A DNA stretch of 64,000 nt, taken from contig OZ252236.1 of the NCBI GenBank assembly GCA_965249455.1, forward strand, positions 102,161-166,160, read 5' to 3'. The translations under genes and the position numbers were made by a program. The stretch's first letter is position 1. The number at the start of each line of letters is the position of its first letter. The notes below the pieces were generated by a model. The model was not told where the DNA came from and did not search any database. It saw nothing but the letters and a program-made list of their open reading frames with translations. The DNA comes from Jiulongibacter sp. (GTDB lineage Bacteria; Bacteroidota; Bacteroidia; Cytophagales; Spirosomataceae). Below are positions 1,747 to 33,295 of the stretch, piece after piece.

Positions 1747-2637
1747 ATGAGTGATTTTGCGATAGGCATAGATCTGGGGGGCACCAATATCAAAGGGGTG
1801 TTAATGAAAGATGATGGACATATCATTGAAAGTTATCAGCTCAAAACCTGTGAAGACCCTAATGGTGAATGGAAACAAAATGTGATTGGCGTGCTGGATC
1901 ATTTAAAATCAAAGTCGCCCGTGCTGATAAAAAGAGTAGGACTTTCTGCTCCAGGTTTGGCAAATTCTGACAATTCTAAAATAGCTCATTTACCAGACAG
2001 GTTACCGGGTCTCGAGAATTTTCTTTGGGCAGAATATCTGCAAACGCCAACACTTATAATAAACGACGCACATGCAGCTTTGATGGCTGAGCACCAGTTT
2101 GGCGTTTTACAAGACTTTCAGAATGCCTTATTAATCACCTTGGGTACTGGTGTAGGTGGTGGAATATTAATAAACGGACAGCTACATCAGGGAATGAGTC
2201 AAATGGCCGGTCATCTAGGTCATATGGGCTTAAGTATTCATGAAGACGAAACCAGTATTCTAGGTATGCCAGGAAGCCTTGAATATGCCATAGGCAATTA
2301 TTCGGTGCATAAGAGATCGCACGGGAGATTTAAAAACACCTATGAGCTGGTAGAGGCATTTGAAAGAGGCGAGCATTGGGCCACCCTACTCTGGCTGGAG
2401 TCTGTCAGAAAATTAAGCTTGGGCATGGTTTCTTTAATCAATATCCTCTCGCCGGAAGCCATTGCCCTCTCTGGTGGTATTACCATGGCTGGAAACGCAT
2501 TGCTAAAACCTTTGTCAGAATATCTTGAAATTTTTGAATTCAAACCAAAAGATAAAACCACTAAAGTATTCCTGGCTAAATACGGTGAAATGTCCGGAGC
2601 CATAGGTGCTGCCGCTTTTGCCATGAAAAACATTTAG
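1747..2637 (+). CDS. ROK family sugar kinase
   Basis: It has an IGIDLGGTNIKGVL N-terminal ATPase motif and ROK-like length. The ATG at 1747 overlaps the SDR stop. Confidence 0.75.
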   Translation: MSDFAIGIDLGGTNIKGVLMKDDGHIIESYQLKTCEDPNGEWKQNVIGVLDHLKSKSPVLIKRVGLSAPGLANSDNSKIAHLPDRLPGLENFLWAEYLQTPTLIINDAHAALMAEHQFGVLQDFQNALLITLGTGVGGGILINGQLHQGMSQMAGHLGHMGLSIHEDETSILGMPGSLEYAIGNYSVHKRSHGRFKNTYELVEAFERGEHWATLLWLESVRKLSLGMVSLINILSPEAIALSGGITMAGNALLKPLSEYLEIFEFKPKDKTTKVFLAKYGEMSGAIGAAAFAMKNI

Positions 2638-2648
2638 AACAAACTAAA

Positions 2649-3458
2649 ATGAGCTATACACAAACATATTTAAAAAAATGTGCAGAATTGATAGAAACGG
2701 TTTCTGCCCAGGAAAGTACGATAAAAGAGGTAGCCACACTATTTGCGAAGACCATCTTAAATAAAAGAATGGTACACGTTTTTGGCAGTGGACACAGCCG
2801 AATCATGGTTGAAGAAATGTGGCCGAGGTATGGCTCTTTCCCGGGCTTTAACCCAATTGTGGAGCTGTCTCTCACTTTTCATAATCTGGTAGTAGGTGCA
2901 AACGGACAAAGGCAAGCCATGTTTCTGGAAAATGTACCGGGACTCGCCGCTCAAATACAAAGGAACTTTGACCTTTCAGAATTAGACTCGGCCCTGATTA
3001 TCTCCTCTTCCGGTTGCAACATTGCTCCCATAGAAATGGCTGAGCTATTTCAAAAGAAAGGGATTAAAACCGTAGGGCTGATCTCAAAAAAACACTCTGA
3101 GGTTAGTGTCAGTAAAAAGTCAGACGGGAAAAAACTTCAGGATTTTTGCGATATCATTTTAGACTCAGGTGCTCCGGTAGGTGATGCCATGGTAAAAATT
3201 GAAGGCTTAGAAACCCCTGTATCTCCGGGTTCTACCATTGGCTCATGTATGATCATTAACAGCATAAAAGCCGAGCTCGCCGCACTACTGACAGAAGCCG
3301 GGCATCCACCTAAAGTACTCACAGCCGGGGTGGTGATAGGTACAGAAAAAGCTACAGAGTTATTCCAGTCAGCCTATGATGAGCATGCTCACAGGCTGGC
3401 TGGCCTTTATGGAAAAGTAGGAATTGAAAGTTATGTTTCACAAGAAATTATAGAATAG
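2649..3458 (+). CDS. SIS (sugar isomerase) domain protein, UPF0309-like
   Basis: It shows the VHVFGSGHS motif and a SIS-type phosphosugar-binding fold. It is tightly packed within the operon. Confidence 0.6.
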   Translation: MSYTQTYLKKCAELIETVSAQESTIKEVATLFAKTILNKRMVHVFGSGHSRIMVEEMWPRYGSFPGFNPIVELSLTFHNLVVGANGQRQAMFLENVPGLAAQIQRNFDLSELDSALIISSSGCNIAPIEMAELFQKKGIKTVGLISKKHSEVSVSKKSDGKKLQDFCDIILDSGAPVGDAMVKIEGLETPVSPGSTIGSCMIINSIKAELAALLTEAGHPPKVLTAGVVIGTEKATELFQSAYDEHAHRLAGLYGKVGIESYVSQEIIE

Positions 3459-3461
3459 ATT

Positions 3462-4655
3462 ATGGCTAATGTTTGCATATTAGGTGGAGGGTTTATCGGC
3501 CGGTTCTATGCAGAATCGTTAATTGGAAGAAGAAGCAAAGACTCTGTAACAGTGGTCTATTCACGAAGTGAGGACACTGTTAACAGATTCGCAAAAGACT
3601 ATAAAGTTGGAAACGTTTACACAGATATGGAGTCGGCGGTGCTTGATCCCGCGGCAGAAATAGTCATTATAGCCTTGCCAAATTATCTCCACGAAGAGGC
3701 CGTCATGCTATGTGTAAAACATAAAAAGGCCGTTCTATGTACCAAGCCTCTAGGCCGTACAGCCCAGGAAGCTCTAAGAATGATGGAAGCTTGTGAAAAA
3801 GCAGGTATTTTCTCCGGCTATCTTGAAGACCTCTGCTACACTCCCAAGTTCCTGAAGTCTTTAAAATCTGTCAAAGATGGGACCATTGGGCGAGTGCTTT
3901 GGGCAAAATCAAGAGAAACACATCCCGGTCCACACGCCGAGTGGTTTTGGGATTTAGAAGCTGCAGGAGGTGGAGCCATTGTTGACATGGGCTGTCACTG
4001 CATTGAAATCAGCAGAAATTTCATTGGAAAAGACATTAAGCCTATAGAGGTCATGTGCTGGGCAGATACACAGGTAAAACCCATTGAGGCTGAGGATCAT
4101 GCCATAGGCTTAGTCAAATATGAAAATGGGGCCATAGGGCAATTTGAAGTAAGCTGGACTTTTAGAGGTGGGATGGATTTGAGAGACGAAGTCATGGGTT
4201 CTGAAGGTACCATATGGGTCAACTCCTGGCTTAGAACTGGTTTTGAGATGTTTACCTCTGGTGAAGGTAATGGCGGATACCTTGTAGAAAAGTCTGAATC
4301 TGACAATGGCTGGCAGTTTCCTGTGGGTGACGAAGCTCATGAACTGGGCTATACCAATATGTTCATTGATATGTTCACAGCCTATGAAGAAGGCACCGCT
4401 CCTCAGGAAAGTTTTTACGACGGCTACGTAGTAAATGCCGTCATCGATGCTGCTTACAAATCAGCAAAAACCAAACAATGGGAGCCTATTGACCTGAAAG
4501 TTTGGAGAGGAAAAGAAGGGGTAACGAAACCCTCTGTTTTTCAGGAGTATGACGCTGACCATTGGTTCATAAAAAATGAAACTTTACCCAATGGAGATAA
4601 GGTCACCATTGTGAAAGACAAAGTAACTGGAAAGACGAAGAAAATTACCAATTGA
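3462..4655 (+). CDS. Gfo/Idh/MocA family oxidoreductase
   Basis: The N-terminal Rossmann motif CILGGGFIGRFYAESL and the 397-aa length fit this family. Confidence 0.8.
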   Translation: MANVCILGGGFIGRFYAESLIGRRSKDSVTVVYSRSEDTVNRFAKDYKVGNVYTDMESAVLDPAAEIVIIALPNYLHEEAVMLCVKHKKAVLCTKPLGRTAQEALRMMEACEKAGIFSGYLEDLCYTPKFLKSLKSVKDGTIGRVLWAKSRETHPGPHAEWFWDLEAAGGGAIVDMGCHCIEISRNFIGKDIKPIEVMCWADTQVKPIEAEDHAIGLVKYENGAIGQFEVSWTFRGGMDLRDEVMGSEGTIWVNSWLRTGFEMFTSGEGNGGYLVEKSESDNGWQFPVGDEAHELGYTNMFIDMFTAYEEGTAPQESFYDGYVVNAVIDAAYKSAKTKQWEPIDLKVWRGKEGVTKPSVFQEYDADHWFIKNETLPNGDKVTIVKDKVTGKTKKITN

Positions 4656-4659
4656 TATT

Positions 4660-5679
4660 ATGCATCAAATACCCATTAAAACCACAGTTGTCGGCTCCTA
4701 TCCCTTCCCGGGATGGCTGGAGTTCGGCTCCGCAAACCTAGATAAGTTTGGTCCCTCAGATATCAGCGAAATGATAGAGGACGCTGTAGTGTGTGCCATT
4801 CATGACCAAACAGAAGCCGGACTCGATGTGATCACTGATGGCGAACAAACCCGTCTGGACTTCAATCTTTCATTTTATGGCTATATCAAAGGTATACAGG
4901 CCAATCATGCGGAAACCCGTATTTTCGGCCCACCGGCTCATGATCAGCGTGGAAAGCATACCATAATTGAACCCCTAACCGCACCCAAGGGCCTGGGCGT
5001 TGTAGAGGAGTATAATCGACTGAAAAGGCTGGCCCCTAAGGGCAAAATCCTTAAGGCCTCCATACCTGGCCCCTATACCCTCTCTGGCAGAATGCTGCCT
5101 GGCGAAGTATATAAAGACCGATGGGATATTACCGAAGCTATCCTTCCCATGGTTAAAAAAGAACTTGAAGATCTGGTAGCTGCCGGGGCAGAAGAAATCT
5201 GTATAGATGAACCTTCTATGAGCTGCTACTCCTATAAAGAAGACACCAAAAGGTTCGTAGATATTTTCAATAGAACCGTGGAGAGCATTCAGGGCAAAAC
5301 CAGGATTGGAACTCATTTATGTTTTGGTAACTATAAAGGCCGTTCAGTTGGTAAAAAGACCATCGCTCCGATGCTTCCTGATTTTCTTGACATGCATGCT
5401 GATGAACTACACACCGAAATGTGCGTCTTAAATTTTGCTGAAGTACATCTATTAGAAAGGTTTGCGGAGAAAATGGACGTAACCGTAGGGGTAATTGATG
5501 TCAAAAGCTATTATATCGAGACCGTTGAAGATGTAAAAGAACGGATACAGCGATGCTTAAAATATGTTCCTAAAGATAAGTTGGCAGTAGCTCCTGATTG
5601 TGGTCTTTCTCAAACAGCCCGCTGGGCCAGCAAGAGGAAACTGAGTAATATGTGTACTGCCGCCAAAGAACTGAGATAA
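4660..5679 (+). CDS. cobalamin-independent methionine synthase (MetE C-terminal-like)/UROD-superfamily protein
   Basis: It has the TTVVGSYPFPGWLE N-terminal motif plus H/C/E/C residues (HLCFGNY, APDCGL) characteristic of the MetE-like zinc site. Confidence 0.6.
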   Translation: MHQIPIKTTVVGSYPFPGWLEFGSANLDKFGPSDISEMIEDAVVCAIHDQTEAGLDVITDGEQTRLDFNLSFYGYIKGIQANHAETRIFGPPAHDQRGKHTIIEPLTAPKGLGVVEEYNRLKRLAPKGKILKASIPGPYTLSGRMLPGEVYKDRWDITEAILPMVKKELEDLVAAGAEEICIDEPSMSCYSYKEDTKRFVDIFNRTVESIQGKTRIGTHLCFGNYKGRSVGKKTIAPMLPDFLDMHADELHTEMCVLNFAEVHLLERFAEKMDVTVGVIDVKSYYIETVEDVKERIQRCLKYVPKDKLAVAPDCGLSQTARWASKRKLSNMCTAAKELR

Positions 5680-5681
5680 TC

Positions 5682-6518
5682 ATGATAAAGGCAGTACAAA
5701 AAGATAAGGATCTCATAAAAGATATTGAGAATTTCTCTGACCACAACGGTTTTAAGGTTTGGTGGCTGGGCCAAAGTGGCTTTCTAATTAAATATCAGAA
5801 CGAGTGCCTTCTTTTTGACCCTTATTTGTCTGATTCATTAACCATCAAATACGCTTCTACAGAAAAACCTCATGTCAGAATGAGTGAGAAGGTTGTTGAC
5901 CCAAACTTACTAACCATGGTGGATGTGGTTACCTCCAGCCATAATCACACAGATCACCTCGACAAAGAGACACTCAATGCTCTTTTTGAGGCAAACCCTC
6001 AGGCCAAATTCATTATCCCGAGAGCAAACGCTCAGTTTGTTGTGGATAGGCTGGATTGTGCCCAGGAATTTCCCATAGGATTAGCTGATGGCGAATCCGT
6101 GAAACTGGGTAAGTTTAGAATTACAGGGCTTCCGGCAGCACACAACGAGCTGGCTGTAAACGATAGAGGCGAACACCATTTTATGAGTTATCTTGTCAGC
6201 TTTGGTAAATATACCGTTTACCATAGTGGTGATACCCTCTGGTATCACGATCTGGCCGAAAGGCTCTCGAAACAACAAATTGATATTGCCTTTCTTCCAA
6301 TAAATGGCAACAAACCAGAAAGAAAAGTTGCCGGGAATTTGTCTGCCGAAGAAGCCGCTAAACTAGGCAAAGAAGCAGGCATTAAGTGTGTGATCCCGCA
6401 TCATTACCACCTATTTGAGTTTAATACCGAAGACCCTGAGAACTTTGTTGATTTTTGTGAAATGTATAGCACACCGTATCAAATTTTAAAACTCGGAGAA
6501 GCTTATTTTTATCAATAA
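5682..6518 (+). CDS. MBL-fold metallo-hydrolase
   Basis: It carries the HNHTDHLD metal-binding motif. I chose the internal ATG at 5682, which lies just after the upstream stop. Confidence 0.7.
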   Translation: MIKAVQKDKDLIKDIENFSDHNGFKVWWLGQSGFLIKYQNECLLFDPYLSDSLTIKYASTEKPHVRMSEKVVDPNLLTMVDVVTSSHNHTDHLDKETLNALFEANPQAKFIIPRANAQFVVDRLDCAQEFPIGLADGESVKLGKFRITGLPAAHNELAVNDRGEHHFMSYLVSFGKYTVYHSGDTLWYHDLAERLSKQQIDIAFLPINGNKPERKVAGNLSAEEAAKLGKEAGIKCVIPHHYHLFEFNTEDPENFVDFCEMYSTPYQILKLGEAYFYQ

Positions 6519-9419: not shown

Positions 9420-9575
9420 TCCAAATTCAATAAAGAACTGTAGGCATCCAAAACTATTTCAAGTGCTGACCGATTATGAAGAATTCTTTCAAATCGCCGA
9501 AATGAAGCTCAAAAATGATTTCTTTACCTATGTAAATGCATGTCTATCCTGCTTTGCCAAAATTGCAGAAAAAAC

Positions 9576-9905
9576 ATGTACACAATCATACTACTACTTC
9601 AGGCCCAACCTAACTGGCTAAAGCTCTCCAGAACTGAAAGAAATACTATAAGTGGGGAAAGCTTTCTAAGCCTTTTAGAAAAATTTAAGGAACACATGAG
9701 TTTTGAATATCATGATTCAGAAGCTTTTCATGCCACCTTTTCTGATTTTCTTCTGATAAAAGCTGCGGACTTACAGAAGTATTATTTCTTCATAGAGGCT
9801 TTGCGGGATTCCGCCCTGCTATCAGAACCTTATTTTGAATTAAAAGAAGTAGTTATTGGAATACCTGACGGATATAAAATATACGAAAACCATGCAGACT
9901 ACTAA
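9576..9905 (+). CDS. darcynin family protein (DUF of about 100 aa)
   Basis: MYTIILLLQAQPNWLKLSRTERN...FEYHDSEAFHATFSDFLLIKAADLQKYYFFIEALRDS...EPYFEL matches my recollection of the darcynin family signature. I chose the internal ATG at 9576. Confidence 0.55.
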   Translation: MYTIILLLQAQPNWLKLSRTERNTISGESFLSLLEKFKEHMSFEYHDSEAFHATFSDFLLIKAADLQKYYFFIEALRDSALLSEPYFELKEVVIGIPDGYKIYENHADY

Positions 9906-10620
9906 TCAAAAAGTCCTTATCACCGGTGCTACAGCCGGAATTGGCCTTGCTCTGACAAAACGTTTTTTATCTGAAGGCAATACAGTTATTGGCATAGGCA
10001 GAAACCCTGAAATACTAAAGGAGCTGAAAGGATCAATTCTCCCATTCCAAGCTGATTTATCCAAAATCTCTGATCGCTTTCGCTTACTTGACTATCTCAA
10101 CAACGAGCATGCAGACCTCTCTGTTCTTATTAACAATGCCGGAATACAATACAATTATAGTTTCCTGGAAGAAGGCTCAAAAATTGACAAAATAAATTAT
10201 GAACTTGAATTAAATTTGACTGCACCCCTGCATTTATGTGAAGCCATTGTTCCTTTGTTTTTACAAAGTGAAAGTGAGAAGGCCATCATCAATGTCACCT
10301 CTGGGCTCGCCGATGTGCCCAAATCCTCCGCCCCGGTTTACTGTGGTTCAAAAGCAGGTTTAAAGCAATTTACAAAAGCTCTTAAATGGCAATTAACAGA
10401 CTCCAATATCCGGGTGTTTGACCTCAGCCCTTCTTTGGTGGACACCGGTATGACTGCCGGCAGAGGAAAAGGTAAAATAACACCTGATAAGTTGGTTGAC
10501 GAATTCTGGAATAAGTACAAAAAAAACCGATATCATATCGATATCGGTAAAGTCAAGCTTTTAAAAGTGCTAAACAGGTTGAGTCCGTCTTTGGCAGAAT
10601 CTATTATGAAAAAGAATTAA
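9892..10620 (+). CDS. SDR family oxidoreductase
   Basis: It has the VLITGATAGIGLAL motif and a YCGSK catalytic YxxxK. Confidence 0.75.
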   Translation: MQTTNQKVLITGATAGIGLALTKRFLSEGNTVIGIGRNPEILKELKGSILPFQADLSKISDRFRLLDYLNNEHADLSVLINNAGIQYNYSFLEEGSKIDKINYELELNLTAPLHLCEAIVPLFLQSESEKAIINVTSGLADVPKSSAPVYCGSKAGLKQFTKALKWQLTDSNIRVFDLSPSLVDTGMTAGRGKGKITPDKLVDEFWNKYKKNRYHIDIGKVKLLKVLNRLSPSLAESIMKKN

Positions 10621-28655: not shown

Positions 28656-28808
28656 AAAAGGCTTCGATAGGGTGTTTCAGACCGAATTTACGGAATAATT
28701 GAGATATCGGTAATATCGCTCCAGATATTCCAGATCTTTATGAAAGGGCTTTATACAACAGCTTAAAAAAGAAGAAACGAGCTATCAGTATACTAATAGC
28801 TCGTTTCT

Positions 28809-30317
28809 TTAATCTTCTCTTGGTTCTTTTCGTCTTGCATCTGCCATTCGAACTATCCTCGGGTGAAAAGAAGCAATTGGTTTGACTAATTCAGTTTGTG
28901 CATCAATAACTTCATGAATATTCTTGTACACCATTGGAGCTTCATCCAGATCGCTTCCAATCAATTCAATTCCCTGATCTCTCAGGATTTTTCTGACCTC
29001 AGATTCATCAACATTTTTAAATGCAGCTGTTCTACTCATTACCCGGCCCGCACCGTGTGAAGCCGAATTGATGGAAGCCTCATTTCCTAGTCCTTTCACA
29101 AGAAAACCCGGCGTTGCCATTGATCCTGGAATTATCCCCAATTCATCTTTGGAGGCAGGTGTAGCACCTTTTCTGTGAACCAAAACATCTTTACCCATAT
29201 ACTTTTCCCGCCAAGCAAAATTATGGTGATTCTCCACCATAAGAATCGGTTTCAAATTCAGATCACTGGCCATTTTGTTATGGATTTCGTGGTGATTCGC
29301 TGAAGCATATTCGCCTGCTAAATTCATAGCTATCCAATATTCCTGCCCTTCCTCTTTATTAAGGTCTAGCCAAGCAAGATGTGAAGCCTCACCGGGCAAC
29401 TTAGTTACCTGCCGTGCAATTCTTGTGTAATAACTAGCAATGGTTCCACCAAAGCCACGTGACCCAGAATGCGATAGCAAAGTCAAATACTGACCCATAG
29501 GTAAACCAATGGCTTCATCAAACTCTTCTATCTCTAAAACTCCCCATTCTACGAAATGGTTACCAGTGCCTGAGGTCCCCAATTGTTTGTAGGCCTTATC
29601 CTTCAAATCATTAATTACTTTTGTGGCATTCCATTCAGCCTTGTCCATAATTGAGGCATCATACTTATGCCTTATCTCTCCGCCTATTCCGAACTGGGCA
29701 TTCTTGCCCAGAAGCGTTTTAAGCATATCAGACTCCTTTTGTAAAACACTTGAAGGCAAATCAAAAACAGACATGCACATTCTGCAAGCAATATCAACGC
29801 CTACGGCATAAGGGATGACCTTATCAGGCTCTGTGGCCAAAACACCTCCAATGGGCAAGCCGTATCCCTGATGAGCATCAGGCATAAGAGCACCACCTAT
29901 AGCTATAGGCAATTGCATGGCAACATTCATCTGGTTAAAAGCTCCTTCTTCAATATACTCACCTCCATAGACAGGGAAATCCAGTATTTCAGGTTTTAAT
30001 TCAAATTTACTGGAATCCAACTCCCTTTGAGTTTTAACCGGAAATTCAGAAATGGTTTGCTCCAGAAGAGCCTGCCCTGCTTTAGTAAGTTTTATGGATA
30101 TTCCATTGTCAGACTCTTTGACTAGCAAGCGAGCCAGCTTAGTCAGCTTATTTTTCCTTTTAGCAGCAGCTTTGGGGTGGTCAAAAAGCTTTACAAGTGC
30201 TTTGAGAATGTCTTCTTCTCCCCACCCTGCTTTGGTTAATAGCCCTTCTGTTACCCGGGTAACTCTAGGTATAATTTCGGCGGGGATTTCCGCAATCATT
30301 TTTATGCTGTTTTCCAT
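28809..30317 (-). CDS. rtcB: RtcB family RNA 3'-phosphate/5'-OH ligase with N-terminal extension of about 80 aa
   Basis: It carries the RtcB signature motifs MPDAHQGYGLPIGG, HSGSRGFG, ENHHNF and SASHGAGR, and a C-terminal ...KPIASFHPRIVRM. Confidence 0.85.
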   Translation of the reverse strand: MENSIKMIAEIPAEIIPRVTRVTEGLLTKAGWGEEDILKALVKLFDHPKAAAKRKNKLTKLARLLVKESDNGISIKLTKAGQALLEQTISEFPVKTQRELDSSKFELKPEILDFPVYGGEYIEEGAFNQMNVAMQLPIAIGGALMPDAHQGYGLPIGGVLATEPDKVIPYAVGVDIACRMCMSVFDLPSSVLQKESDMLKTLLGKNAQFGIGGEIRHKYDASIMDKAEWNATKVINDLKDKAYKQLGTSGTGNHFVEWGVLEIEEFDEAIGLPMGQYLTLLSHSGSRGFGGTIASYYTRIARQVTKLPGEASHLAWLDLNKEEGQEYWIAMNLAGEYASANHHEIHNKMASDLNLKPILMVENHHNFAWREKYMGKDVLVHRKGATPASKDELGIIPGSMATPGFLVKGLGNEASINSASHGAGRVMSRTAAFKNVDESEVRKILRDQGIELIGSDLDEAPMVYKNIHEVIDAQTELVKPIASFHPRIVRMADARRKEPRED

Positions 30318-30351
30318 TTTTTTCTATTTGATACTACAAAGCTGGCAATCG

Positions 30352-30374
30352 TCTACGCAATCTTTTTGCGTAGA
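30352..30374. promoter_or_regulatory. perfect palindrome TCTACGCAA-tcttt-TTGCGTAGA (candidate operator) in the rtcB/regulator divergent promoter
   Basis: It has 9-bp perfect inverted arms with a 5-bp spacer and lies between the rtcB start (30317, minus) and the WYL regulator start (30420, plus). A half-site, TTTACGCAAA, overlaps the regulator ATG (30411-30420). Confidence 0.65.
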
Positions 30375-30419
30375 TAGCAGAAAGTTCTAATTTGCTAAAA
30401 ATAAGTACAGTTTACGCAA

Positions 30420-31457
30420 ATGCCCGTTAACAGAAACGCCCTGATCCGCTACAAAGTAATTGACAGCTGCCTGCAAAGGAGACAACGAAAATGGACACTT
30501 GATGATTTAATTGATGCCGTTTCTGATGCCTTGTATGAGTTTGATGGCAACGATAAGGGTATAAGTAAGCGAACGATCCAGTCAGATATTCAAATGATGA
30601 GGAGTGATAAACTAGGTTATTATGCTCCCATTGTGGTTGAAGACAAGAAATATTATACCTATTCAGAACCAGGGTACAGCATCACGAATATTCCACTATC
30701 CGAAACTGATTTAGGAAAGATGAACGAAGCCGTAGAAATGCTGAAACAGTTCAAAGGCTTTACGCATTTTAATCAGCTGAATGAGGTGGTTCAAAAACTG
30801 GAAGATCATGTTTACTCGTCTCGTGTCAAATCGTTTCCTGTTATAGATTTTGAGAAAAATGATAATCTGAAAGGTCTAAATCATCTTGATATTCTGTATC
30901 AATCGGTTATTCATAAAAAGCCCGTTTCATTGACTTATCAATCATTCAAAGCCCGAAAGGCGAGTACTTTTGCCTTTAACGTCTGGTGGCTAAAGGAATT
31001 TAAGAACAGGTGGTTTGCCGTTGGCGTCAAAGATCAGAAGAAGTTTCTTCTAACACTGGCTTTGGATCGAATTGAGGATGTTAATATTTCAGAAGAAAGT
31101 TATGTAGAAAATGACAAGTTCAATCCTGAATTATACTACAAACATGTAATTGGGGTAACTGTGAGCAATCATCTAAGACCTCTTAAAGTTGGTTTGTTTG
31201 TTTCCAATCTGCATGCCCCGTATGTCATTACAAAGCCTTTACATAGCTCTCAAGAATTACTGGAAACACGGGAAGATGGTATGGTAATTCAATTGAAAGT
31301 ACAGCATAATTTTGAGCTGGAAAAAGAAATTCTTGGCTTTGGGGAAGGAGTGCAAGTTTTGTGGCCGCCAAGGCTTCAAAAGAAAATTAAAGAAAGATTG
31401 CAGAACGCCTATAAAAGCTATGACTCATCAGATATTCCCGACGAGTCACTAGCTTAA
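30420..31457 (+). CDS. WYL domain-containing transcriptional regulator (wHTH plus WYL plus C-terminal WCX-like domain; PafBC/DriD-like)
   Basis: It has an N-terminal HTH (GISKRTIQSDIQMMRSD). The WYL core is PVSLTYQSFKARKASTFAFNVWWLKEFKNRWFAVGVKDQKKFLLTLALDRIEDV. It is divergent from rtcB. Confidence 0.7.
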   Translation: MPVNRNALIRYKVIDSCLQRRQRKWTLDDLIDAVSDALYEFDGNDKGISKRTIQSDIQMMRSDKLGYYAPIVVEDKKYYTYSEPGYSITNIPLSETDLGKMNEAVEMLKQFKGFTHFNQLNEVVQKLEDHVYSSRVKSFPVIDFEKNDNLKGLNHLDILYQSVIHKKPVSLTYQSFKARKASTFAFNVWWLKEFKNRWFAVGVKDQKKFLLTLALDRIEDVNISEESYVENDKFNPELYYKHVIGVTVSNHLRPLKVGLFVSNLHAPYVITKPLHSSQELLETREDGMVIQLKVQHNFELEKEILGFGEGVQVLWPPRLQKKIKERLQNAYKSYDSSDIPDESLA

Positions 31458-32548
31458 TTTTTCATGAAGATTTGCTTCAATTGATCCAGAATTTGTCCGT
31501 TTCCTGAAACAGAAATTGTGTTGATTTTCTCTGCGATCTTCTCCACGTATTCCATCTCCTTCAGTTTCCAGAGCATCTGGTTTTCTTCCATCAGTTTAGC
31601 CGTATTCAGCAAGCTTCTGGTAGAAGCCGTTTCCTGTCTTTGCGTAATCATATTGGCCTGAGCTGTTTTTTCGGCAATCAAGACTTTGTTCATAATCGTT
31701 TTGATTTCGCCCGGCAAAATGATATCCCGAATACCGCAGGTTTTTAATTCCACCCCTAAAGTAAGGCCCTCTTTGGCCACATCCTGAAGTATGTAATCAG
31801 AGACTCTTTCTTTTTTGGCCACCAGTTCATCCAATGTCATTTCACCAATGTACTCTCTCAATGAAATCTGAAGCATCACATACAACTGCTTTTCAAACTC
31901 CTTGTTATTAAAGAGAGCTTTCTTGAGGTCAACAACCTGATAATGAGCAAAAAAGCTGATCCGAACATTAGCCTTGTCCTTGGTCAGAATTTCCTGGCCG
32001 GAAACCTCCAACTGCTGCTGACGAATATCCAGTTTGGCGACATCTATTTTTGTGGCGTTTTTCCACCAATAGTAGGTACCGCTCTCAAGCTCTTTCTCAA
32101 ATTTTCCGTCAATCAAAAGCAAGCCTCGCTCGTAAGATTCCAAGGTATACCTTCTTATCCATGGCAAAAGAGCGGTGTCCAGCAATTGCCTTTCAATATC
32201 CTCTGTAATCTCAATTTTGGAGGTGTCCACTTTAACAAATGTTTGCTCTTTGATGCCTTTCCATACACCGTATTCGCCTTTTAACAATACTTTTGAGAAT
32301 CGTTTGTTTTCGAATTGGAGGGCAATTTGATTGTCTCCAACCTCAATCAAGTGTAGCTCGCTGGCTACTTCTGGTTTCAGATGCAAAGTATCTTCAAGTA
32401 AGGGAGGATTATATACCTCATCTCTGTTAAAAACAAATACCTGTTCACCTTGAATGAACCAATAAATGCCTTCCTGAAGCACCTTTTGGAATTTCTTCCT
32501 TTTGAAAACCAAACCAATCTGGTTTTCCAATACCTGTACTCTTTTCAT
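31454..32548 (-). CDS. SPFH/band-7 (slipin-like) domain protein with an extra N-terminal half
   Basis: The C-terminal half has the stomatin/HflC-like motifs (VRISFFAHYQVVD..., GIRDIILPGEIKTIMNKVLIAEKTAQAN). The first 150 aa or so are unassigned. Confidence 0.65.
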   Translation of the reverse strand: MKRVQVLENQIGLVFKRKKFQKVLQEGIYWFIQGEQVFVFNRDEVYNPPLLEDTLHLKPEVASELHLIEVGDNQIALQFENKRFSKVLLKGEYGVWKGIKEQTFVKVDTSKIEITEDIERQLLDTALLPWIRRYTLESYERGLLLIDGKFEKELESGTYYWWKNATKIDVAKLDIRQQQLEVSGQEILTKDKANVRISFFAHYQVVDLKKALFNNKEFEKQLYVMLQISLREYIGEMTLDELVAKKERVSDYILQDVAKEGLTLGVELKTCGIRDIILPGEIKTIMNKVLIAEKTAQANMITQRQETASTRSLLNTAKLMEENQMLWKLKEMEYVEKIAEKINTISVSGNGQILDQLKQIFMKN

Positions 32549-32559
32549 TTGGGTACGTG

Positions 32560-32884
32560 TTTAAGTTAAAAAATAATAAAGCCGCTTAACCCGGGTTATC
32601 CGCAGAAAACTGCTGACGGGGTCCCCCTTAAGAACAGCTGGGGGTGGAACGTTCCAGTAGATCCTTGTGAACTCCATTTAGTATCAGATGTACTTTTTGG
32701 TGAAAACAAGTATCGACCAGAAGGTTTCACTCTTCGTCATTCGGTATCCGGGCGGCCCGGCCGAGCTCCTGTGATCACTAAGACCTGGGCAAGCCGGGTT
32801 AAACGGTGAGTTTTGCCATTTTTGGGCTGACAGCCCTTTACAGATTAACGGTCTGTTGCATTAACCAATATGCTTCAGGTAACT
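32560..32884 (-). other. GC-rich, hairpin-dense non-coding segment between the tRNA-like array and the SPFH gene (structured leader or unknown ncRNA)
   Basis: There is no ORF of 60 aa or more. Local GC is well above the flanks, with many strong hairpins (GGGGTCCCCC, GGAACGTTCC, CCGGGCGGCCCGGCCGAGCTCC) and two AACCCGG(C/G)TT motifs. Confidence 0.35.
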
Positions 32885-33160
32885 AAAACCTAGCGGGATT
32901 CGAACCCACATATTGCTGCTGCTCTAACCTAGCTGAGCTACTCCGTCAAAGACAGAGGAAGGAATCGAACCTTCGACCTGCAAGGTGATATAGAGATTAA
33001 AGTTCTGACGGCATATTCATCCCAATTAGTAGAATACCACGAGGCAATACGGAAACCTTCGTCAGGTTCAAAACAGTAATCAAAAATCGAGGTGAATATG
33101 AGGATCGAACTCATGTCTTTACCCTAGTGGGCATTGTCCTTTCCACTGGACCAAAACACC
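32885..33160 (-). ncRNA. tandem array of about three tRNA-like elements lacking canonical anticodon arms (Y-RNA/YrlA-like tRNA mimics or degenerate tRNAs)
   Basis: On the minus strand, elements 1 and 3 have canonical T-arms and D-arms with a U8-A9 junction, and element 2 has a canonical T-arm. The T-arms are ATGAG-TTCGATC-CTCAT, GAAGG-TTCGATT-CCTTC and GTGGG-TTCGAAT-CCCGC. The D-arms are GTCC-AGTGGAAA-GGAC and GCTC-AGCTAGGTTA-GAGC. Only 11-21 nt sit where a 17-nt anticodon arm plus variable loop should be. In element 1 this region is a 5-bp stem with a 4-nt loop. The acceptor-stem pairing is imperfect in all three. Confidence 0.5.
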
Positions 33161-33194
33161 TTTGTTGTCAATTGACTGTACAAAGGTTTTGCAG

Positions 33195-33215
33195 TAGTAC
33201 GCAGCCTTTTTGCGT
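33195..33215. promoter_or_regulatory. second copy of the TACGCA-N7-TGCGTA palindrome, upstream of the tRNA-like array on the minus strand
   Basis: GTACGCAGCCTTTTTGCGTAG matches CTACGCAATCTTTTTGCGTAG at 30353-30373 in 17 of 21 positions, with identical spacing. Confidence 0.6.
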
Positions 33216-33295
33216 AGGTGAAAAATTTCTTACTTTTTATTATTGTGGCAATTGGGTAGATTTTACTAATAATAGTACATAACTATTCTATGAAA

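Follow-up and report, generated by a model that had tools for sequence, protein, structure and literature searches.

A conserved 21-bp operator and its predicted WYL-domain regulator of RNA repair genes in Bacteroidota

Introduction

RtcB, Ro60/Y RNA and Band-7/tRNA-like modules are widespread in bacteria, and their triggers and roles are poorly understood. To our knowledge, RtcR of enterobacteria is the only control circuit of these modules that has been worked out. WYL regulators are said to have been listed among the neighbours of RNA repair genes by Burroughs and Aravind in 2016. The present study concerns a 21-bp operator that occurs twice in a stretch of 64,000 nucleotides from Jiulongibacter sp. 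(Bacteroidota, Spirosomataceae; contig OZ252236.1, positions 102,161 to 166,160 of the forward strand), here called the window. One copy lies between the divergent genes for the RNA ligase RtcB and a WYL-domain regulator, the other upstream of tRNA-like RNAs and an SPFH/Band-7 gene. No description of this operator, of its coupling to a -7 promoter box or of its regulon was found in the searchable literature.

According to two reports (PMC7790460; bioRxiv 10.1101/312249), RtcR controls rtcBA in E. coli and Salmonella and responds to damaged tRNA fragments, and the Salmonella operon includes Rsr (Ro60) and Y RNAs. A system of RtcB, Band-7 and b7a-tRNA, with Ro60 and YrlA as interchangeable partners, was predicted by Burroughs and Aravind (2016), as quoted in bioRxiv 10.1101/312249. 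Together with CARF regulators, WYL regulators have been proposed to sense cyclic-ended RNA and to control RNA repair (PMC9503650), and that paper cites Burroughs and Aravind (2016) for WYL regulators near RNA repair.

The best described WYL regulators serve other purposes. DriD of Caulobacter crescentus, an activator of the SOS-independent DNA damage response, recognizes the box ATACGAC-N7-GTCGTAT with an AT-rich gap, which was defined by electrophoretic mobility shift assay and crystallography and is found in driD promoters too (PMC10853764). DriD binds asymmetrically, and the distance between its sites and the -10 element, in promoters with a poor -35, is constant (PMC13004042). Promoters controlled by mycobacterial PafBC have no -35 and carry an element at -23 to -28 (PMC8635444). 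CapW of the cyclic oligonucleotide-based antiphage signalling system (CBASS) and BrxR of the bacteriophage exclusion system (BREX) are described (PMC11662680) as homodimeric WYL repressors on palindromes before the adjacent operon, and single-stranded DNA changes CapW binding.

Results

Two copies of the operator in the window

The initial annotation had placed related palindromes at the promoters of rtcB and the WYL gene and of the tRNA mimics and SPFH. Read directly from the sequence, their positions are:

30352-30374, no strand assigned: operator O1, TCTACGCAATCTTTTTGCGTAGA; core TACGCA-ATCTTTT-TGCGTA at 30354-30372, shared between the divergent rtcB and WYL promoters

33197-33217, no strand assigned: operator O2, GTACGCAGCCTTTTTGCGTAG; core TACGCA-GCCTTTT-TGCGTA at 33198-33216

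The perfect 9-bp inverted repeat that had been described between rtcB and the regulator was found in O1 as the arms TCTACGCAA and TTGCGTAGA around a 5-bp centre. The regulator gene (start at 30420) and rtcB (start at 30317, minus strand) diverge around it. On the minus strand, the first tRNA-like element starts at 33160, and O2 precedes it by 37 nt. Exact matches to TACGCA-N7-TGCGTA occurred twice in the 64 kb, against 0.00 expected from 100 dinucleotide shuffles. The two 21-mers are identical at 18 of 21 positions, not at 17 as first counted, and differ at positions 1, 8 and 9.

It had also been stated that the motif occurs nowhere else in the window. This held: allowing up to two mismatches to the pattern added no further site there. 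The refuting outcome named in the initial annotation, a motif found at many unrelated positions, was checked within the window with a 41-nt matrix (operator plus the promoter box described below), trained solely on 99 sites from other genomes with the window sites left out. O1 scored 42.8 bits and O2 43.4 bits, which is near the median score of the sites used for training, and no position in the rest of the window reached 8 bits. A half-site over the regulator start codon, TTTACGCAAATG, is present at 30411-30422 as reported. TACGCA alone, however, occurs 22 times in the window and the half-site is kept in only 1 of 80 homologous loci, so that it is no more than chance and was rejected as a functional element.

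The operator is conserved as an oriented unit

Homologous loci were gathered by a scan of a genome collection with an alignment of 13 members of the regulator family. This yielded 80 loci (929 kb in total), each from a different species, of the Cytophagales, Chitinophagales, Flavobacteriales, Saprospirales and Bacteroidales. The degenerate core TRCGCA-N7-TGCGYA had 99 exact matches in these loci, against 0.4 in shuffles, and the full consensus of the sites reads CTRCGCA-RTSTTTT-TGCGYAG, with an A/T-rich tract upstream. Sixty-eight sites lie upstream of a WYL gene, most commonly 57-59 nt from its start, and the distance between operator and WYL gene is 54-67 nt in most loci.

Conservation extends to the spacer, which is asymmetric: over 80% of the sites have T at core positions 8 and 10-13. 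With few exceptions the T run falls on the WYL-gene strand, also in the 43 sites that do not adjoin a WYL gene. This indicates that the operator is an oriented 21-bp unit and not a plain palindrome. Judged from this conservation, the two palindromes of the window are genuine copies of a predicted binding site that is conserved across the phylum Bacteroidota. The earlier account of a palindrome and a regulon is supported by the comparative evidence; it missed the asymmetric spacer, the rigid coupling to a -7 box and the wider regulon elsewhere.

A -7 promoter box at a fixed distance from the operator

Promoters of Bacteroidota carry a -7 box with the consensus TAnnTTTG, paired with a TTTG-type element at -33. 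This consensus was used here in place of the sigma-70 model, which is uninformative for Bacteroidota: a sigma-70 promoter scan gave fewer matches than shuffles. On the side facing away from the WYL gene, the flank of almost all of the 99 exact sites reads tACAAAg.T, which on the other strand is nAnCTTTG, a -7 box (nAnnTTTG). Eight nucleotides separate it from the 21-bp operator. Of the 99 sites, 84 have the box at one and the same offset and another 7 have it 1 nt further (91/99 in total). Both operators of the window have it, and a second candidate promoter points towards the regulator gene:

30337-30344, minus strand: predicted -7 box of rtcB, CAGCTTTG, 8 nt from O1; predicted transcription start at about 30329-30332

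33181-33188, minus strand: predicted -7 box of the RNA array and SPFH, AACCTTTG, at the same offset as at O1; predicted transcription start at about 33173-33176

30365-30395, plus strand: candidate promoter of the WYL gene; a TTTG of the -33 type, contained in the operator's right half, is followed after 19 nt by TAATTTGC of the -7 type; predicted transcription start at about 30401-30405

Where the -33 TTTG would be expected, the conserved spacer of the 99 sites reads AAAA and there is no TTG, which implies that the target promoters are without a -33 element. The first T of their -7 box is poorly conserved, so that the box is imperfect. With the TA of the -7 box set as -12/-11, the target promoters carry the operator at approximately -41 to -21; its two half-sites fall at about -27 to -22 and -40 to -35. 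Its centre is near -31 and it occupies the place of the -33 element. On the WYL side, the 68 sites upstream of WYL genes share the consensus TTTG, 19 nt, then TAnTTTT. This arrangement is less rigid and less well supported than the one on the opposite side, the box being found at exactly the O1-like position in only 17 of the 99 sites.

Genes downstream of the composite element

For the 91 exact sites with a box, the first recognized gene in the direction of the -7 box was recorded:

SPFH: 29 sites, 28 of them preceded by several hundred nucleotides with tRNA-type T loops

RtcB: 23 sites

TROVE/Ro60: 8 sites

protein of 192-204 aa without assigned function: 6 sites

RlaP nucleotidyltransferase: 5 sites

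T4-type RNA ligase: 4 sites

protein of 722-743 aa with weak TerD and Prok-RING matches: 2 sites

DUF2828/vWA protein: 1 site

protein of 271 aa with no Pfam match: 1 site

no recognized gene: 12 sites, several at contig ends

The element recurs upstream of WYL, RtcB and SPFH genes, the last with tRNA-like RNAs, in line with the single regulon of rtcB, regulator and tRNA-like/SPFH transcript that the initial annotation had proposed. In 32 of the 91 boxed sites no WYL gene lies within 400 nt. Besides the WYL gene, no other conserved regulator gene was found in the homologous loci.

A search of metagenome contigs with the motif only gave 122 instances, 62 with the box and 60 without. A WYL or RNA repair homologue was present within 2.5 kb in 46 of the 62 boxed sites, as against 2 of the 60 unboxed sites, which are mostly on GC-richer contigs. 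This contrast indicates that in large collections the bare pattern does turn up by chance, but that the composite of operator and box is specific to the RNA repair gene set. The WYL gene was the commonest neighbour whether the search started from the gene or from the motif. Taken together, it is very probable that one operator defines an RNA repair regulon tied to the WYL protein.

Among viral contigs (IMG/VR) there were 44 motif matches. Two of these have the box and represent one element found twice (L233 and L237); the others are unrelated repeated sequences, and the scan of viral contigs gave no link of the motif to phages. In L233 and L237 the operator and box are followed by tRNA-like RNAs and then by a tyrosine integrase, at a distance from the operator of about 580 nt. 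This arrangement suggests the insertion of a mobile element at a tRNA-like gene, in the manner known from genuine tRNA genes.

The protein of 722-743 aa is a recurrent target, often behind a leader of 240-440 nt, and has a TerD-like C-terminal part and Prok-RING_4, both as weak Pfam matches only (L008 at about 1840-4066 and L021 at about 300-2460; also L091, L109, L112, L123, L127, L132, L135 and L191). It is a candidate new member of the RNA repair set. The family of 192-204 aa, which has no Pfam match, is found in Flavobacteriaceae (L068, L072, L073, L075, L078 and L080), where it is divergent from the regulator and its open reading frame starts 33-36 nt from the operator.

The predicted regulator

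The gene next to O1 encodes a protein with a helix-turn-helix (HTH), a WYL and a WCX domain:

30420-31457, plus strand: regulator gene, 345 aa; winged HTH, predicted helical linker, WYL, WCX

Pfam detected WYL (PF13280) at residues 155-222 (1.6e-08; 34.8 bits against a cut-off of 21.8) and the C-terminal dimerization domain WCX (PF25583) at residues 255-330 (8.4e-10). There was no Pfam HTH match and no NCBIfam match in the regulator. In the AlphaFold model the N-terminal winged HTH, comprising three helices and a beta hairpin, takes up residues 5-81, and the Foldseek alignments cover the HTH of DriD and PafB. The mean predicted local distance difference test score (pLDDT) of the model is 66.8, the domains being good and the linker below 50. 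Linker helices are predicted at 95-109 and 119-135, also with pLDDT below 50; the length of 345 aa, with an alignment of about 340 columns, resembles that of the activators. Over the full length, Foldseek ranked PafBC (3.4e-14) and DriD (9.6e-14) ahead of CapW and BrxR (about 1e-8). A search of the PDB with the single regulator sequence gave no matches, and a profile search gave PafB and DriD marginally, at E 0.001-0.07.

The family comprises 6823 database proteins at E <= 1e-10. Its best named relatives, 62-72% identical, are from Leadbetterella, Emticicia, Spirosoma, Fibrella and Chitinophaga. Residues S49, R51, Q54, D56, Q58, M60 and R61 of the recognition helix are invariant in the 13-member alignment, which matches the invariance of the half-sites. 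This invariance, the co-occurrence of gene and operator and the likeness of the latter to the DriD box are the grounds on which the operator is assigned to the WYL protein, an assignment that has good grounds but falls short of proof. Indirect support for a dimer comes from the dyad symmetry of the operator.

In L044 (6001-7740), L065 (6001-7722) and about 30 further loci the open reading frame of the regulator is 573-586 aa long and has an additional C-terminal domain of about 230 aa. This domain belongs to the PhyH family of 2-oxoglutarate/Fe dioxygenases (Pfam 3.2e-10) and could be a sensor or an RNA-modifying enzyme; the copy in the window is without it.

The O2 transcript and tRNA arrays in other genomes

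The tRNA-like elements of the window lie in a non-coding stretch of about 600 nt that precedes SPFH on its strand:

33090-33160, minus strand: tRNA-like RNA 1, Rfam tRNA 36.8 bits (gathering score 29), cloverleaf fold, anticodon loop of 4 nt

32990-33088, minus strand: structured RNA module with sequence blocks common to the leftward transcripts of other loci; no credible Rfam match

32893-32982, minus strand: YrlA-type tRNA-like domain, with a T arm, a D arm and then a second T arm

32823-32877, minus strand: weaker tRNA-like element, Rfam tRNA 21.9 bits, below the gathering score

Since its anticodon loop has 4 nt, tRNA-like RNA 1 is a mimic and not a decoder. The YrlA-type domain scores 22.4 bits with the Rfam tRNA model. 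Its match to Rfam YrlA (RF02553) covers 32917-32982 with 37.2 bits and E 2.5e-06, below the gathering score of 69 and over model positions 23-85 only; as just the tRNA-like domain is aligned, without the Ro-binding stem, the RNA was not assigned to the YrlA family. ARAGORN found no tRNA in the window, where the RNAs were detected by Rfam only. The block at 32990-33088, which sits between tRNA-like elements, reads approximately CYGAYGRGGGUUUCUGAAUAGCCCCRUAGUAU ... AUAUGCUG and has equivalents in L009, L014, L022, L026, L071 and others. On the minus strand at 32560-32815, about 250 nt before the SPFH start, a long-range structure without a tRNA-like match is predicted.

In several other loci, canonical tRNA genes lie directly downstream of the -7 box (ARAGORN and Rfam, 50-71 bits), where the window has mimics. 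Arrays of 8-13 tRNAs with different anticodons, followed by SPFH, were found in L040 (about 4600-5820), L047 (5061-5861) and L165 (oriented; about 9500-10540). Other loci have a lone tRNA, among them tRNA-Phe, -Lys, -Tyr and -Pro: L045 (5765-5838), L054 (5760-5834), L055 (835-920), L064 (5770-5843), L073 (1877-1960), L075 (3157-3323) and L078 (2397-2470).

The remaining features of the region are:

28809-30317, minus strand: rtcB, 3'-phosphate/5'-OH RNA ligase, 502 aa; Pfam RtcB 1.7e-83, residues 131-489

28772-28809, minus strand: terminator-like hairpin at the end of rtcB, with a 17-bp stem and then a T run (terminator scan)

31454-32548, minus strand: SPFH/Band-7 gene, 364 aa; Pfam Band_7 1.3e-27; last gene of the O2 transcription unit

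The hairpin closes rtcB, which is therefore probably monocistronic. RtcB has an N-terminal extension of about 120-130 aa outside the Pfam match, also seen in the RtcB proteins of 500-510 aa of related loci. The regulator and SPFH genes are convergent and share 4 nt at their 3' ends (31454-31457). A terminator-like hairpin for SPFH, at 31420-31449 on the minus strand, falls within the end of the regulator gene. Among the other genes of the 64-kb window no TROVE/Ro60, RlaP, RNA ligase or PhyH gene was found.

Discussion

A proposed switch and its alternatives

The following sequence of events is proposed. The HTH-WYL-WCX protein would bind CTRCGCA-N7-TGCGYAG, probably as a homodimer, with O1 and O2 as its operators. 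A nucleic-acid ligand arising from RNA damage, supposed by analogy with RtcR and other WYL regulators, would bind the WYL domain. The ligand-bound dimer would then engage the operator and recruit or adapt RNA polymerase at promoters lacking a -33 element, O1 turning on rtcB and O2 turning on the tRNA-like RNAs and SPFH. At O1 the regulator would also control its own gene, through the TTTG of its own promoter inside the operator. As the candidate promoter of the regulator uses this TTTG, autoregulation is likely, and its sign could be either. For the whole of this reading, namely an operator of the WYL protein, an RNA repair regulon and activation of -33-less promoters, we estimate a probability of about 0.55.

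The argument for activation is one of geometry. A spacing fixed to within ±1 nt, a fixed asymmetric orientation and the lack of a -33 element suggest that RNA polymerase is contacted stereospecifically, and thereby favour activation. A fixed distance from site to box and the lack of a good -35-type element, as in the DriD and PafBC activators, are both seen here. Activation appears roughly twice as likely as repression.

Several points weigh against this interpretation. Both binding and the direction of control are deduced from sequence, and the numbering depends on the TA of TAnnTTTG being -12/-11, with transcription starts that are predicted. An operator centred at about -31 and covering -41 to -21 is also in a classic position for a repressor. 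The DriD box lies further upstream, ending at -36, and PafBC places one HTH on the DNA, at a non-palindromic element, so that neither activator geometry is exactly reproduced. Similarity to PafB and DriD is marginal at the sequence level (E 0.001-0.07), and as the quality of the model is modest, its ranking of activators over repressors is weak evidence. Furthermore, every WYL regulator structurally matched here binds single-stranded DNA, not RNA.

It is possible, though clearly less probable than activation, that the WYL protein acts in the way of CapW and BrxR, as a repressor that blocks both divergent promoters until a damage ligand releases it. The operator covers not only -41 to -21 of the target promoter but also the TTTG of the regulator's promoter, a placement typical of steric repressors. 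Among the significant structural matches are CapW and BrxR (about 1e-8), both of them WYL-WCX repressors on palindromes, and WYL regulators in conflict systems are described as negative regulators (PMC9503650; PMC9186387). The A/T-rich tract upstream could serve as an UP-like element, which would leave the promoters active without a -33. The target promoters nevertheless look weak on their own, having no -33 and an imperfect -7 box with a poorly conserved first T, and a symmetric steric repressor would need neither a spacing of ±1 nt nor a spacer orientation that is fixed throughout the phylum. The predicted helical linker and the length of 345 aa are as in the activators, to which the structural match is about 10^5-fold better than to the repressors.

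A second alternative, which we regard as improbable, accepts the site as real and has it bound by another factor or an alternative sigma, the WYL gene being merely one target. The assignment to the WYL protein does draw on co-occurrence, 32 of the 91 sites are without a WYL gene within 400 nt, and a different holoenzyme with an extended promoter might in principle account for the constant distance to the -7 box. The homologous loci, however, hold no other conserved regulator gene, and the WYL gene is the commonest neighbour in gene-first and motif-first searches alike. The dyad and its 7+7+7 frame, with TACG placed as in the DriD box, moreover fit a winged-HTH dimer of the WYL family.

That the palindromes arose by coincidence, or represent an RNA hairpin, terminator, repeat or other structural feature, is more improbable still: although the terminator scan gave a weak hairpin overlapping O1 (30362-30384) and the bare pattern occurs by chance in many unrelated genomes and viral contigs, the counts far exceed expectation (2 against 0 in the window, 99 against 0.4 in the homologous loci), the sites are intergenic at fixed distances to promoter box and start codons, the chance matches elsewhere are without box and associated genes, the unique flanks of the homologous sites speak against a mobile repeat, and a terminator or RNA hairpin was rejected since the predicted transcription starts are downstream of the sites, which places the sites outside the RNA, and since their conservation is in DNA dyad and spacer.

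Significance

One protein and one 21-bp site offer an experimental handle on the RNA repair signal in another phylum, and the components that act together can be read from the list of the regulon. Should RNA be what the regulator senses, the range of WYL ligands would cover RNA damage as well as DNA damage; should the regulator activate -33-less promoters, this would be the first such case with the transcription machinery of Bacteroidota. The canonical tRNA arrays under the same operator suggest a damage-inducible tRNA reserve. A more far-reaching model, which we consider speculative and rather unlikely in its entirety, is that the WYL protein is the RNA-damage sensor of Bacteroidota. It would read broken RNA (tRNA halves, cyclic-phosphate ends) in place of single-stranded DNA, activate -33-less promoters by PafBC-like adaptation of the unusual sigma factor of Bacteroidota, and supply repair enzymes together with replacement or decoy tRNAs as an inducible answer to anticodon nucleases, the mimics serving in the present genome and the arrays of 8-13 canonical tRNAs in others.

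Comparison with known systems

In gene content the locus corresponds to the RtcB/Band-7/b7a-tRNA system, having RtcB, SPFH and an adjoining tRNA-like RNA on the same strand. In function its nearest analogue is RtcR, likewise a dedicated regulator with a ligand-sensing domain next to rtcB. RtcR is unrelated in sequence, combines CARF, sigma-54 AAA+ and HTH domains and acts at sigma-54 promoters, whereas the Pfam domains of the regulator described here are WYL and WCX only and its promoters are of the -7 TAnnTTTG type.

CapW and BrxR have the winged HTH, WYL and WCX in common with the regulator. They differ in being shorter (about 280-290 aa), in matching its structure less well (about 1e-8) and in repressing phage defence. 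PafBC, which acts by sigma adaptation, is the best profile and structural match, and the proximal half-site of the present operator coincides in position with the PafBC element at -23 to -28. PafBC differs in being a heterodimer or fusion of two WYL proteins, in which one HTH reads a non-palindromic element, and in controlling about 150 DNA damage genes in response to single-stranded DNA. DriD has the order winged HTH, helical linker, WYL and WCX, which is also the one predicted for the regulator. Its box and the present operator are both 21 bp long in a 7+7+7 frame, with T, A/R, C and G at positions 2-5, and both occur in the promoter of their own regulator. DriD is, however, only 12-15% identical to the regulator, its targets are DNA damage genes and its ligand is single-stranded DNA. 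The DriD box reaches no further than -36, upstream of the -35 position, whereas the one here lies at about -41 to -21 of a promoter of the Bacteroidota -33/-7 type. By this comparison the protein is probably a WYL regulator of RNA repair and an activator, and thereby a functional analogue of RtcR. It would combine a box like that of DriD with a promoter position like that of PafBC, and would be devoted to RNA repair where its known relatives serve DNA repair or phage defence.

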